Source: Curvularia clavata
Taxonomy: Eukaryota
Assembly (NCBI GenBank): GCA_023920165.1
Contig: CP089276.1
Coordinates: 992,001 to 1,056,000 of the forward strand
Direction of reading: 5' to 3'
DNA length: 64,000 nucleotides
The translations under genes and the position numbers were made by a program. Below, piece by piece: positions 24,721 through 60,675 of this stretch. The notes beneath the pieces are model-generated. The model had not been told where the DNA came from and did not search any database. It was given only the letters and a program-made list of their open reading frames with translations. Positions within the stretch are counted from its first letter, which is position 1. Every line of letters starts with the position of its first letter.

Positions 24721-26166
24721 TATTCTACCTCTTTATTTGTTTTCCATCTCACGTCAAATCGCTCAACGGCATTCATCAGTGTTCTTGTCTCCTAGCAATA
24801 CGACGAATTGAGTGGATAAACATCTTTCCAGCATACGCCGAACATGCTCTGTAATCGGAGGTGCTTGGATATAATCTCCTGACTACGTGTATACGCTGTA
24901 CTGAAATTATCCTATTGCTGAACTTGGTCTTCTCATACGCTAATTTTCTTAACGAGATCTAGAACTATAGATGCTCTGGTAGCTGTAAATTTAATGTACG
25001 CCAGATTTGTTGATAGAAGAGCGACACAAATGACGCTCTAATTGTCAGCTGACAAGTTTTGTGGACTGAGAGCAAAATCTGGGGCGCAATGAAGATCTAC
25101 AAGCCGAAGACGACCCATAGCAATATCATTGTTGGTAAAATATAGACGTCAATTCAGCTGGGTCTGTGCCAACTCCAACAACGAAGCGATTGTGCGCATA
25201 CTGAGAGTCAACCAGCTTCTGTGACGAGAGCTGGGAAGGCAATGCAGGTCTAAGGTGCGCGATTATGGCATATTAATACAAATTACATCAAGTGTTGAAT
25301 GATCCAACGATGCATGCTCCACTAGCATGGCTTAACCGCCAAAGGCATGCATTCTTACCACAACGAAAAGGTGGCGTTGCCTTGCTTCGCCAACAGGGTC
25401 CTTACTACTGAGCCTGCTCCCGACGCTTCTCAGGCCAATATCCCCGTAAAACAACCTTCAAACGAAAGTCTCTCTGAGACAGCCAGTTAGTTCAGGAACT
25501 CGAAAATGATTTTTGATTCTTTTGAATGCAATTTCAATATCATGACTGAGTTGATGGACTTGTACCATGAGGTCGCAACCACGGGGAGCCCAAAAAGCTT
25601 GACAGTTGTCCGTAGCTACCTGTGGAATGTCACACAGATCGAAAACATTGTGTCAGCGATAGGTAATATGGTTCAATTCAGCAACCATGCGGCATACCTA
25701 TGCTGTGCAATCAGATCGGAGGTGAAGCTAGGAAGACTCAGTCCGTCATCACCAGGTGAAGTTCCAAAAGGAAGCGGTTCAAGTAACTCAGGTGCCTGCT
25801 GCCCTGACCTCTCACTACATCACATCGCGTAGTTATTTGTATAGCTAGCAGCTGCAATTCGAGGCAGCTGAGCCATATACCGCAGTGTGCTATTGTCACC
25901 CAAGTCGTGAAATGCGCATTCTTCCAACAACTTCATTGTGCTTCCGTGCAACTGATTTATGCCGCCGCTCTCTCACCGAATCCTTCTCAATACAAGCTTA
26001 TGAGCACTGCATAACTTGCACAAGCTCTCACGTGCACAGTCTCCACAGTCACCGCTTGTTAGTCCCACCTGCAGACCCACTGGGTTCCGTTTGTCGACGT
26101 CACGGACGCGGTGTGCAGAGCGGCGGCCGAAGGTTTTTCCGATGCCGCTAGCGCGAGACTCCCAGG

Positions 26167-26174
26167 TATATAAA
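26167..26174 (+). promoter_or_regulatory. TATA box of the U2 snRNA gene
   Basis: TATATAAA ending about 30 nt upstream of the inferred U2 5' end at ~26204. Confidence 0.7.
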
Positions 26175-26203
26175 CCCCCGCTCCCACCTTCCTTCTGTTC
26201 TTT

Positions 26204-26440
26204 AGCTCTGTGAGTTTTTTTCCTCACCCCCCCTACTGTCGGCCACCCTACTAACGTATCCCAGCTTTGCCTTTTGGCTTAGATCAAGTGTAGTATCTGT
26301 TCTTTTCAGTTTAATCTCTGAAACGTGACTACGGTCACATTCAAGATTATTCTTATTTTTGGAATCAGTGGATGGCTCCCTGGGCTTGCTCATAGCCATC
26401 CTCACAGTGTCGCCTGTATCGCACTACCTCAGGCCGACGC
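26204..26440 (+). ncRNA. U2: U2 spliceosomal snRNA, interrupted by a 55-nt spliceosomal intron (26210-26264)
   Basis: CTTTGCCTTTTGGCTTAGATCAAGTGTAGTATCTGTTCTTTTCAG is the conserved fungal U2 5' core, with branch-pairing GTAGTA at 26290-26295. Also present: stem IIa, stem IIb GTGAC-TACG-GTCAC, Sm site ATTTTTGG at 26355-26362, stem III, and stem IV with loop TATCGCACTAC. Confidence 0.95.
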
Positions 26441-27372
26441 GAATTTTTTTCATTGAGCTTTCTGGCCTGGCCAGTTTCTCGAGGAAGAGAATTGAATTAC
26501 GCTGCATTGCATTCGGTTGCTCTCAAAACTCTATGTGTTGCTCTATTCTCATAGAATGTATGTGCTTATAGATTTCGCCCATATGTCAGTTGGAGGAGTA
26601 TTTTTCGTGTTCAGTTTGCCCTGTGCCTAGTGATTGCCTCGTCTACTGATTGCTGGCTGCTCCGAGACACGCTTCGTCATTGCGCTAGCATGTTCTTCTA
26701 CCTTTCCTGTTCCAACCCATGCCAACTCATTTCAAGCATTTCTACCATGTTGATGTGAACACCATCACAATAGGCATGGGCAAGAATGGTCTAGTAGAGC
26801 AAGTTACGGCGCGCCCAGGCCGCAGCTAGGGTAGGAAAGCTGATGCTACTACCCTGATGCAGCGGGGTGCTGAGCAAGATGCCGCGCAACATAATATGAT
26901 GTTTGACAACAACGCTCAGATACAACTCAACAAGTCAACTAGCTGCCAAAAGCCAGCCAGACGTCGCGCCAATCTAGACGTCACTGTGTCCAGCAGCCAA
27001 AACGACACTGAAAACGAGGCCTATAGGATACATGGGAGGCCAGGCTCAAAGGCTTGGACCTTACCAGGTCGCCCCAGCTAACCCGGCATAAACTCATACA
27101 GGAAATATAAGAAGAGGTCAAGCCCGACTTTTGTTACCACTACGGTACACTCATCTTCCAGTACACACAATTCTTTATGGTAAGGACGACAGAAAATGAG
27201 TCTCAAATGGTCTGGTTTTCGATTTCCCAGTTTATCAGCTGTTATAATATCAATACGACTGATGTGTTCTCGATTCTCTTGTCTTCAGTGAGGAACAATA
27301 GCGGCAGTTTTAGTTTGGAGGTTGCCTGGCTTTGCTCTTGTTGAAGTAATACACTGACGTCCTGTAGGTCGA

Positions 27373-55188: not shown

Positions 55189-57365
55189 TTACAGATCAAT
55201 AGATAAACGATCCGAATACACTCGCTCCTGCCTTCCTTTCACCGTGCTAAGAAGTATACCTAGACGAGACACCACGTATTCCCTCTCCAGCAAAACCACC
55301 TCCCCTTCAGCCGGGCTATCGCTACTAACATAGATCCTCCCTCGCGCATCCACCGCCATACCTACCGGCCGGAAACAGCTCGTCGTAGAGCACTTCTCCA
55401 CACTCTCGTTCCACAAGACATCTTCCCACACCTCAGTCGCATTACCTACCGCAGCAGGCCCAAAACCTTTGGCTCCTTGATTGAACGGCACTTCAATGAC
55501 TTTGAAGCCCACAGGCGGGTTGCGGTTCCAGCTCCCATGCAAAGTCACGTATAAGGAGGAGAAGTTTCCGTTGAACTTTGCATCGAGCGGCGTCGAGTGT
55601 GCAGGGAGAGCAAGACGAGGCGCTATACTACGCTCTTCACATGTCGCATCGGTGAATGTTGCATTGGGCTCCAGTACGAACTGGTCGCCTATGGTGAAGT
55701 TTTGACCGGGGATGACTGAGGGAGAGTAGACAGTGAAGCAGGTAGGATAGCCGTACCAGTTCTTGTTTTCCTGTGATGGATCGCCAATGTAGTTGAGCTC
55801 GTCAGCGGGGTTGTCGTTATGGATGTCGGTAGAGATACTGTCAATGGTGCGGTACAGTTCATCCGCTGAGTTTTCGAGAGCCCAGAGATTCGAAGATGCG
55901 TCGTATGCTAGGCCGACGGAGTTGCGTAGGCCATAGCCTAGCTGCTGGCCAGTGGTGGCGTAGTCGTAGCCGCTGGGCGGTACTGTAGTGGTGTCGAAGA
56001 CCTTGATGCACGACCGACCCGTTTTGATGTCAAGGGAGCCATAGTCGAGATTGTCGTTTGAGCCGTGCGAGACGAGAAGAAGGTTTGGGTGTTTCGGTGG
56101 TATGCTCAGTGACCGTGTAACATGGCCTCCGCTATCCATACCCGTTACTATAGTAGTGGCGTTTGCTGATACACTCATTGTTGCTGCATCGTATGCCCAT
56201 GCAAACACCGTGGTAGCGGAACTGGCATATAGCGTCTTACTATCCTGGCTGAGCACCATACCGTGATTGAGGTTCCGCTGCGCAATCAATGTTTTGCCAG
56301 GCTCTAGGCACCCATTTGACGAGACCTTGTGTACAGTGACGCCGACACCGTTTTGAACCATGAGGAGATTGCCGGCACTATCGAAGATAAGGCTTCGTGG
56401 CTGCGTCAAACCTCCTGCGACTTTTGTTGCTTTCCAGCCTTTAGCGGTATATAGAGGAAATGCAAGACTGGCGACGCCATCACAAGAAGTAGGTACATCC
56501 GTTGGGACTGGTCCTGAAGATGTAGAAGGAATGGCACTAGTGCCCATGGACGTCGGGCGCACAGTTGAGGCTGAGGTAGGCACCGGAGCGCTGCTCGCTA
56601 CTGGCGGTACATCAGAAATGAGATTCGAAGCAATCAAGCTGTCAAAGTCCAAATTATGACCTTGCGTCAGGTTGACCTTGAAGTGGCCAAATGAACTGTG
56701 AACGTTGAAGGTTGATCTGTTGTTCGCGGGCTGTGCAGGTGCTTTACTCGATAAGCCGTATGCAAACTTTTGCGCAGAGGCGTTTGCATCAATTGAAACG
56801 GTCTTTCCGTCAACATTGAGCCACTGCGAACAGCCTTTGCACCGGACAGTCAGCGTCCAATGTGTCGCATTGTACCCTGTCCCCTTGACATATGTGTATT
56901 CCGCGTCGGCGTAAGGCTGTGGCAAGCTAAGTCCTCTTGATCACCGTTAAAGTCAGATTCGATGTCTATACATGCGGAACTTCACGTCGAAAACGTACAG
57001 GGCCATTCTGGAACTGTAGATTGATGTTTTGGACGCGGCGTTCACCCAGCCCATCGTAAGTGGAACATAGGGCATAGTACTACCCCAGCTGAAACCTACC
57101 CATCCATTTGCGATGGGTGATATAATGTTTAGCACGGTGTCAAAGGGTGCGGATACGGCTGCTGGTAGGGCAATACGAAAGGTAACGCCATTCGTTCCAG
57201 TCCAGCTCGAGTAGCAGATTGTAGTCTCCGGGTCGCAGTATCGCTCAGAGCTTTGCCCATGTGCTATGGCTGTTTCAGGCCGGATATTTGGTTATTCTTT
57301 TACTGGGTATACGTACCAAGCGTTGTGAAAAATGATAGGCCTAGATGTAGTACAGAGACCTTCAT
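55189..57365 (-). CDS. Secreted AA8 cytochrome domain + AA12 PQQ-dependent (sorbosone/pyranose) dehydrogenase
   Basis: Signal exon MKVSVLHLGLSFFTTL. CDH-cytochrome motifs GWVGFSWGSTM, WTLTVRCKGCSQW and FNVH. S/T/P linker, then beta-propeller motifs GGHVTRSL, GLRNSVG, ENSAD, DNPADELN, YGYPTC, HGSWNR and CFRPVG. Confidence 0.88.
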
Positions 57366-59310: not shown

Positions 59311-59520
59311 GTATTTGTATTTTTTTGGAATATGAAGTTCACTTTCAATGAGATCAAAGGACTTATGTCAACCACGTCATCTCCGAATGCACATTCATAC
59401 AGGGCGATGTGTTTCATTCTTGATAAAATATGTACAGTCTAAAGCTCAATGTCGATGTGCATGACACGAGACCTCAGCGATGAAGCTTTTATTAGTCAAA
59501 TCGCGTGATCATGCGGACTT

Positions 59521-60675
59521 CTACCAAGTAGGCTGAAGAGGTGGATCAGCGTTCTTGACGAGCATCTGAACATACTCGTCGAACCAGGCACCAGCAACTG
59601 GTGCACCGGCCAGACCACAGGCTCCGTCACTCTCACCACCGGGCTTGATCCAGACGATCGAGTCGACGTTTGTGTTGTTTGGCGCAGATCCAGGACGCAC
59701 ACCAAAGCCAGAGGGCTGGACATTACACCACTCGCCCCATTCCTTGCGGGCACCGGGAAGGGCAACACGGCCCTGGTCAATGATGAAGTTTGTTGGCATA
59801 CCCTCAGCAGCCATTGCCGCTCCAAGGGAAGTAGCGTAGTGGCTCTCATCCCAAGACGGAGAATACTCGGTGTAGTTCTCACGAACCTTGGCATTGAAGG
59901 GGTTGTAGTTGGATACGTTGGTTGAGTAGCCCCGAATCTTGGCTGCTGGGTTGAGCTTCTTGGCCATGGCGACGACCCTAGCAAAGATCTGGGCCGTGGG
60001 CTTCAGGTTGTCGGCCCATCCGAGCCAACCTCCGTGGGCGGCGTCCATGTACAGGTGTACATTGGGGTACTGCAGCTTGGCGATAGCGTAGGCAATACCT
60101 TCCTCGTAGATGGGAGTGGCATTGGCACAAAAAGGAACACCTTGGTTTGTGACGGCGTTTCCGAGCGAGTCTGGCTCGAGAACAATGGCGAAATCAAGAT
60201 CCCTGGCCTCGGATACAAGCTTTGCGTACTTGTCGACAAACTCGGTCTTGTAGATGGCCAAGCCATTGTTCTTGGAGCTAAGTTCACCGGCTGACTCTCC
60301 AGCAGAGCAGTCACGGTCGGGCAGATTGTAGAGAACAAGGCCCACAATCATCTTTTTTCCTCTCTTCCTCTGCTTGCGGGCTTGCTCGATGGCAGTAGGG
60401 ATCAGGCTGAGACCATCACGTGATGTAACCCATACGAAAGTGGAGATCTTCTGAGCAACAGTGCGGGTTCGTGCTGCGTTGAGGGGGTCGTTCTTCGCCT
60501 GGAAAGATGCAATGGTCTGCTGAAGTTTCTTGCCATAGCTCTCAACGACATAGCGGTCCTTGCCTATCCACGGGTTGACGGTAACGTTGCTAGGAGGCGC
60601 AGGTGGTTTTGGGGCTGCGGACGCAGCGCCAGCAAGGGCAGCAGTTGCCAAAACAAACTGTGTGATTTGAACCAT
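59521..60675 (-). CDS. GH6 cellobiohydrolase/endoglucanase without CBM1
   Basis: Signal peptide, then YNLPDRDCSAGESAGE, VLEPDSLGN, DAAHGGWLGW, NVSNYN, WGEWCN and WIKPGGESDG. Confidence 0.95.
   Translation of the reverse strand: MVQITQFVLATAALAGAASAAPKPPAPPSNVTVNPWIGKDRYVVESYGKKLQQTIASFQAKNDPLNAARTRTVAQKISTFVWVTSRDGLSLIPTAIEQARKQRKRGKKMIVGLVLYNLPDRDCSAGESAGELSSKNNGLAIYKTEFVDKYAKLVSEARDLDFAIVLEPDSLGNAVTNQGVPFCANATPIYEEGIAYAIAKLQYPNVHLYMDAAHGGWLGWADNLKPTAQIFARVVAMAKKLNPAAKIRGYSTNVSNYNPFNAKVRENYTEYSPSWDESHYATSLGAAMAAEGMPTNFIIDQGRVALPGARKEWGEWCNVQPSGFGVRPGSAPNNTNVDSIVWIKPGGESDGACGLAGAPVAGAWFDEYVQMLVKNADPPLQPTW

Follow-up and report, generated by a model that had tools for sequence, protein, structure and literature searches.

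A probable spliceosomal intron six bases from the 5' end of a U2 gene in Curvularia clavata

A U2 snRNA gene of Curvularia clavata very probably carries a spliceosomal intron directly beside the cap. In the window, by which we mean the whole stretch of 64,000 nucleotides that was analyzed, comparative evidence makes us confident of a functional gene of the RNA polymerase II type, whose transcript would start at or next to A26204 and would be interrupted after its sixth base by a canonical intron of 55 nt. The initial annotation had described a U2 gene whose first exon is 6 nt long and in which removal of the intron rebuilds the 5' strand of stem I, and this description is upheld both by the anatomy of the window and by comparison with at least 120 other U2 copies. 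Judged by sequence, the intron is one of a widespread group of 5'-proximal U2 introns that lie after base 5, 6 or 7 in filamentous ascomycete-like fungi. Introns in spliceosomal RNA genes are rare, and the case that introns spread by reverse splicing near the active center of the spliceosome has drawn on them.

The U2 gene and its proposed splicing

The U2 identity of the gene is clear. The Rfam family RF00004 matches the forward strand at 26258-26448 over model positions 1-192 with 147.1 bits against a gathering score of 46, and this is the sole Rfam match within the 64-kb window. The match combines a full-model score above gathering with the branch-point recognition sequence GTAGTA (GUAGUA in the RNA; 26290-26295) and an Sm site, ATTTTTGG (26355-26362), placed between stem-loops. 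Exon 2 opens with CTTTGCC at 26265 and comprises the U2 body, that is, the remainder of stem I, GTAGTA, the Sm site and the 3' stem-loops; it runs on the forward strand to 26448, the end of the Rfam model match. Upstream on the same strand, the sequence reads as a TATA box (TATATAAA, 26167-26174) and, beginning 30 nt below its end, the putative exon 1, AGCTCT (26204-26209), which would form the first six bases of mature U2. Between the two exons lies the 55-nt intron (26210-26264), recognized by its sequence and by comparison, with the 5' site GTGAGT (26210-26215), the branch site TACTAAC (26249-26255; branch A at 26254, 10 nt from the 3' end) and the 3' site CAG (26262-26264). Our reading of positions 26000-26700 agreed with the initial annotation on every motif coordinate and on the placement of the intron in the 5' strand of stem I.

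The signals are those of an ordinary GT-AG intron: GTGAGT at the 5' end, a branch of the CTRAY type, a YAG terminus, and a length within the range of the window's own introns. A heuristic GT..CTRAY..YAG search that joined open frames returned 11 candidate mRNA introns in the window (49-84 nt; two of the 11 are overlapping alternatives), and the U2 intron agrees with them in size and in signals. The window's other genes are fungal, and include a GH6 cellobiohydrolase, an AA12/CDH-cytochrome gene, eIF2B, Ima1 and an NPHP3_N NTPase. The GH6 gene, an intronless frame on the reverse strand at 59518-60675, is 87-88% identical to Alternaria-type proteins (relatives in Alternaria at 87% and 84%, Pyrenochaeta at 83%, Pyrenophora at 83% and Stemphylium at 82%; best match 89%), and this one protein points to a Pleosporales-like dothideomycete. 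It adjoins a reverse-strand frame with AA12-like and cellobiose-dehydrogenase cytochrome domains (55189-56940), with which it makes up a small lignocellulose-degradation neighborhood.

The initial annotation had also stated that the unspliced sequence lacks the 5' strand of stem I, and this is true only in part. On the Rfam model, one pair of the unspliced DNA, a G-A at the base of stem I, is flagged as non-standard, and six bases of the 5' leader do not fit; in the Rfam structure, removal of the intron exchanges the G-A for a U-A pair. However, Rfam aligns the unspliced DNA over positions 1-192 with no apparent truncation, and the case for an intron must therefore rest on other evidence. For a second comparison, the first 68 nt of 70 co-linear U2 genes were made into a profile HMM. 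On it, the spliced window sequence scores 76.1 bits, aligning from profile position 1 and matching the consensus 13-mer AGCTCTCTTTGCC at 13 of 13 bases, whereas the unspliced, co-linear sequence scores 66.7 bits, aligns from profile position 7, which is the start of exon 2, and matches at 8 of 13. The gain from splicing on this fungal profile is modest (9.4 bits). It bears out the earlier expectation that the spliced form would outscore the unspliced one with full 5' coverage, on a profile of intronless copies instead of the Rfam model.

Where transcription starts, that exon 1 is six bases long, that the intron is actually spliced and that this copy is used are all points that we infer from the sequence. 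Hypothetically, the transcript would start at or beside A26204, some 30 nt below the TATA box. The capped precursor would then be spliced by the existing spliceosome, with U1 pairing to GUGAGU and a U2 snRNP assembled from pre-existing U2 pairing to UACUAAC. AGCUCU would be joined to CUUUGCC to give the conserved 13-base 5' end AGCUCUCUUUGCC, and with this joined end stem I would gain its outermost U-A pair and the RNA its 5' leader. In yeast, the U2 5' leader pairs with the 3' part of U6 to form U2/U6 helix II. The spliceosome would have to recognize a capped first exon of 5-7 nt, which is extremely short, and this counts against the presence of an intron.

Recurrence and origin of the insert among U2 copies

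For comparison, metagenome contigs were scanned with the exact 37-nt core of the U2 5' region, which yielded at least 117 loci and at least 120 U2 copies, or 121 with the window. This set is a redundant metagenome sample of contigs that carry no taxon labels, chosen by the exact 37-nt core, and the copies were aligned on that core before they were classed. Among the matches listed, 80 of the 121 copies have AGCTCTCT directly before TTGCC and are co-linear, with a 5' end that reads AGCTCTCTTTGCC; 12 are co-linear with variant leaders, and in five the upstream sequence is too short. A GT...AG insert of 51-64 nt is found in 23 of the 121, including the window (again among the matches listed). Three loci (L018, L026 and L061) each hold two head-to-head U2 genes a few hundred bases apart, all of them intronless. 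In four others (L052, L009, L050 and L077), a contig end falls within 8 bases of the U2 5' end; L052 has the A of AGCTCTC as its first base, and L009 starts within the final bases of an intron. The assembly probably broke at these points, where a repeated U2 body gives way to diverged flanks. The idea that L052 is a spliced contig derived from RNA was rejected, because the contig extends 4.4 kb downstream and L009, L050 and L077 break at the same place.

The insert occurs at three adjacent positions. Among the matches listed, it follows base 5 in two copies (AGCTC/GT...AG/TCTTTGCC), base 6 in 14 copies including the window (AGCTCT/GT...AG/CTTTGCC), and base 7 in seven (AGCTCTC/GT...AG/TTTGCC). 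The length of exon 1 and the start of exon 2 co-vary across these 23 copies as 5+8, 6+7 and 7+6, so that the joined 13-mer is always identical to that of the 80 co-linear genes. The only explanation that we see for this co-variation is ligation of the putative exons. The exon 1 of the window is itself the first six bases of the AGCTCTCT present in the 80 intronless copies (among the matches listed). A survey of other U2 copies had been suggested with the initial annotation, and it favors the intron: besides the window, 22 of the matches listed carry an insert whose removal rebuilds the same 5' end. All 20 intron-bearing loci submitted to Rfam (the window and the duplicates L057, L072 and L105 were omitted) were recognized as U2 with 98.5-149.6 bits, 18 at full length and two cut by the end of the locus. 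In one further locus, L104, a similar insert follows a variant exon 1, AGCATC, and the joined 5' end would be one base longer than the 13-mer.

Our classifier required GT, AG and the reconstruction of AGCTCTCT, and these features of the inserts are thus imposed. The strict model of exon 1, GT...AG and exon 2 fits 23 of the 36 copies without a directly upstream AGCTCTCT (35 loci and the window, among the matches listed), whereas 1000 trials in which the upstream 140 nt were shuffled with the last 6 kept gave 0.127 fits on average and never more than 2. The intron-like arrangement is far above chance. Other features were not imposed by the classifier. Among the matches listed, all 20 distinct introns have G as their fifth base and 19 of the 20 have T as their sixth, and 22 of the 23 introns place a CTRAY motif 10-13 nt before their 3' end, the exception being L062 with CTAAG. 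The intron interiors, equally free of the classifier, show little conservation, with a mean of 0.61 bits. Positions 7-30 of the 20 distinct introns are rich in C (46%) and poor in G (7%), often with CCCC, and correspond in the window to 26216-26240; the remaining intron sequence is about even in composition. This C-rich 5' half may reflect shared ancestry or a function.

The insert is cleanly present or absent between relatives. Locus L079 is intronless, while L094, L002 and L066 carry an intron after base 7; their promoters and 3' flank can be aligned, their U2 bodies are nearly identical, and the difference between them is the exact presence or absence of the insert. Precise intron loss is the outcome that would be expected of recombination with spliced cDNA. 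The window's intron also has recognizable kin. Its interior resembles those of the position-6 introns L031, L113 and L034 (1-3 of 1000 shuffles reach the score), which suggests that it has been retained across lineages, and it resembles the position-7 intron L015 weakly (40 of 1000 shuffles). A FastTree phylogeny of 97 distinct U2 bodies of 185 nt intermixes the intron states, and the bodies are too short for a trusted order of events.

Positions 5, 6 and 7 may represent either one-base shifts of a single old intron or repeated insertion. We put forward, tentatively and as a somewhat unlikely scenario, that in filamentous fungi spliceosomal introns land repeatedly at the U2 5' end. On this hypothesis, the three positions would have arisen by repeated reverse splicing, or by re-insertion of an excised intron into mature U2 inside the spliceosome, followed by copying back to the genome, with losses via spliced cDNA. 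If true, U2 genes would record the transposition of introns into a spliceosomal RNA outside the catalytic core, and the spliceosome would be able to cope with capped first exons of only 5-7 nt, which would rank among the shortest known.

A different question is whether the intron has a role. The initial annotation had proposed that maturation of this U2 needs U2 snRNP, with the intron's TACTAAC as the cue, creating a possible feedback loop. The dependence is logically true, as removal of any spliceosomal intron needs U2 snRNP, and the window's branch site is a perfect TACTAAC. But among the 23 introns in the matches listed the perfect TACTAAC is found in the window alone, the rest having mostly GCTAAC, the ordinary motif; the intron is dispensable between close relatives; and the loop would be self-reinforcing, not homeostatic. 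We consider it improbable that the intron is a regulatory device coupling U2 production to U2 snRNP activity.

Promoter, 3' flank and use of the copy

The promoter favors a start at exon 1: in intron-bearing genes the TATA box and the TAGCG element keep the distance to exon 1 that they keep, in intronless genes, to the 5' end. In the window, the last TATAWA lies 35 nt from the A of AGCTCT, and the U2 body lies some 90-100 nt from TATA. Among the matches listed, the distance from TATAWA to AGCTCT in intronless copies is 37-62 nt (median 48) in 58 of the 61 with the motif, the three outliers lying at 169-184 nt, and the distance from TATAWA to the micro-exon in intron-bearing copies is 32-49 nt (median 38; 11 of 23 with the strict motif). 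Upstream of the TATA box, TAGCG/CGCTA is enriched about fourfold over shuffles in co-linear and intron-bearing genes alike: among the matches listed, it is found at -130 to -31 in 51 of 76 intronless copies against 13.4 expected from shuffles, and, counted from exon 1, in 12 of 22 intron-bearing copies against 3.8. TAGCG/CGCTA is thus a possible snRNA promoter element in these fungi, a candidate put forward on its enrichment and position. The window has a CGCTAGCG-type element of this kind on the forward strand at 26146-26154, 55-58 nt before the proposed start. A TATA box about 30-60 nt upstream of the presumed start, together with a common upstream element, is the arrangement of a polymerase II snRNA gene in filamentous ascomycetes, and the window shows it. 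The promoter of the window is moreover homologous with those of the co-linear loci L055 and L096, sharing a TATATAAACCC motif and a pyrimidine tract followed by (T)TTAGCTCT.

The 3' flank (26447-26494, forward strand) consists of a TTTTCAT box at 26447-26453 and a predicted hairpin. TTTTCAT occurs downstream of U2 in 81 of the 101 copies with enough flank (among the matches listed), and RNAfold predicts a long hairpin after it in 26432-26536, with -27.2 kcal/mol for a single fold taken without a shuffle control. Box and predicted hairpin are probably signals of 3'-end formation.

These features also bear on whether the window copy is in use. The intron could be real in origin but sit in a silent or minor locus, with U2 supplied by intronless paralogues elsewhere. 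In the entries of supplement 2 to a 2008 screen (PMC2396436), there are three U2 genes in Pyrenophora and four in Stagonospora, both Pleosporales, as against none in Alternaria brassicicola, and the counts in the first two make several copies likely in the window's genome as well. In the window, however, the U2 body is intact at 147 bits, and its promoter elements, splice signals and 3' box all resemble the consensus. Its relatives keep the splice signals while the interiors of their introns diverge, a pattern that indicates selection on splicing and argues against a silent copy. The window's intron, being related to those of L031, L034 and L113, has likewise been kept across lineages. We regard a silent or minor copy as quite improbable.

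It is highly improbable that there is no intron, that transcription starts in or just after 26210-26264, and that mature U2 begins near 26258-26265 behind a promoter region whose motifs resemble splice sites by coincidence: the Rfam alignment of the unspliced DNA from 26258 across model positions 1-192 would fit such an arrangement, but the bases before CTTTGCC vary among the 14 base-6 copies while the intronless 5' end is invariant in 80 (among the matches listed), the TATA box would stand about 90-100 nt from the start against 37-62 nt in intronless genes, and both the co-variation of the exons at three positions and the 23 fits against 0.127 in shuffles would be left unexplained.

Relation to known introns in small RNA genes

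The intron in the U2 gene of Rhodotorula hasegawae is said to be known from one species and reportedly sits just downstream of the U2 branch-point recognition sequence, whereas the proposed intron of the window follows the sixth base. The Rhodotorula intron is of the mRNA type, in a basidiomycete yeast (Takahashi et al. 1993, as cited in PMC5855946 and PMC2396436), and, in the pertinent text of a 2018 review, it is the one U2 intron given beside cases in U1, U5 and U6 (PMC5855946). As in the window, a canonical spliceosomal intron interrupts U2, and its removal needs the machine that U2 helps build. The two differ in phylum, and the window-type intron is found in 23 of 121 copies at three adjacent positions (among the matches listed).

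Introns in U6 were described in Schizosaccharomyces pombe (Tani and Ohshima 1989) and in many fungi (Canzler et al. 2016), as reviewed in passages of PMC5855946. They too are spliceosomal introns in the gene of a spliceosomal RNA, their presence varies by species, and reverse splicing has been discussed as their source. However, U6 is a polymerase III gene with introns in or near the catalytic core, whereas the U2 gene of the window is TATA-driven and carries its intron in the stem I/helix II leader beside the cap.

The closest analogue in anatomy is the U3 snoRNA of fungi. According to passages of a 2017 survey (PMC5832005), the U3 gene, a small RNA gene transcribed on its own, has a TATA box and yields a trimethylguanosine-capped product; its introns occupy a few neighboring positions that are characteristic of different clades; their presence differs among close relatives and paralogues; and sliding versus repeated insertion is debated. 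In contrast to U2, U3 acts in rRNA processing, and it is for U2 that first exons of 5-7 nt are proposed. The same passages state that, among small structured RNAs, frequent interruption by introns was known for U3 and U6 only (PMC5832005).

The U2 genes predicted earlier in Aspergillus, Coccidioides and Chaetomium have 5' ends, as given in entries of PMC2396436 supplement 1, that read (CC/TT)AGCTCTCTTTGCC. This is the same 13-mer as in the spliced window sequence, but those genes are co-linear, without an insert. The literature searched yielded the Rhodotorula case as its only U2 intron and no report of a 5'-proximal one, and an earlier mention in PMC2396436 supplement 1 or in subscription journals is possible. 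What is probably new is that the intron sits beside the cap, recurs widely and occupies three adjacent positions; that spliceosomal RNA genes can contain spliceosomal introns was already known.

An intron six bases from the cap would make U2 the third frequently interrupted small RNA, after U3 and U6. It is present in about a fifth of the sampled ascomycete-type U2 genes (among the matches listed), with clean gain or loss between relatives, and U2 introns offer a natural test bed for one-base intron shifts in which no reading frame is involved. Annotation with covariance models reports the intron-bearing genes as co-linear and assigns them a wrong 5' end. Finally, U2 genes of this kind would pose the mechanistic question of how the spliceosome recognizes so short a capped first exon (5-7 nt), together with its 5' splice site, and holds both through the two catalytic steps.
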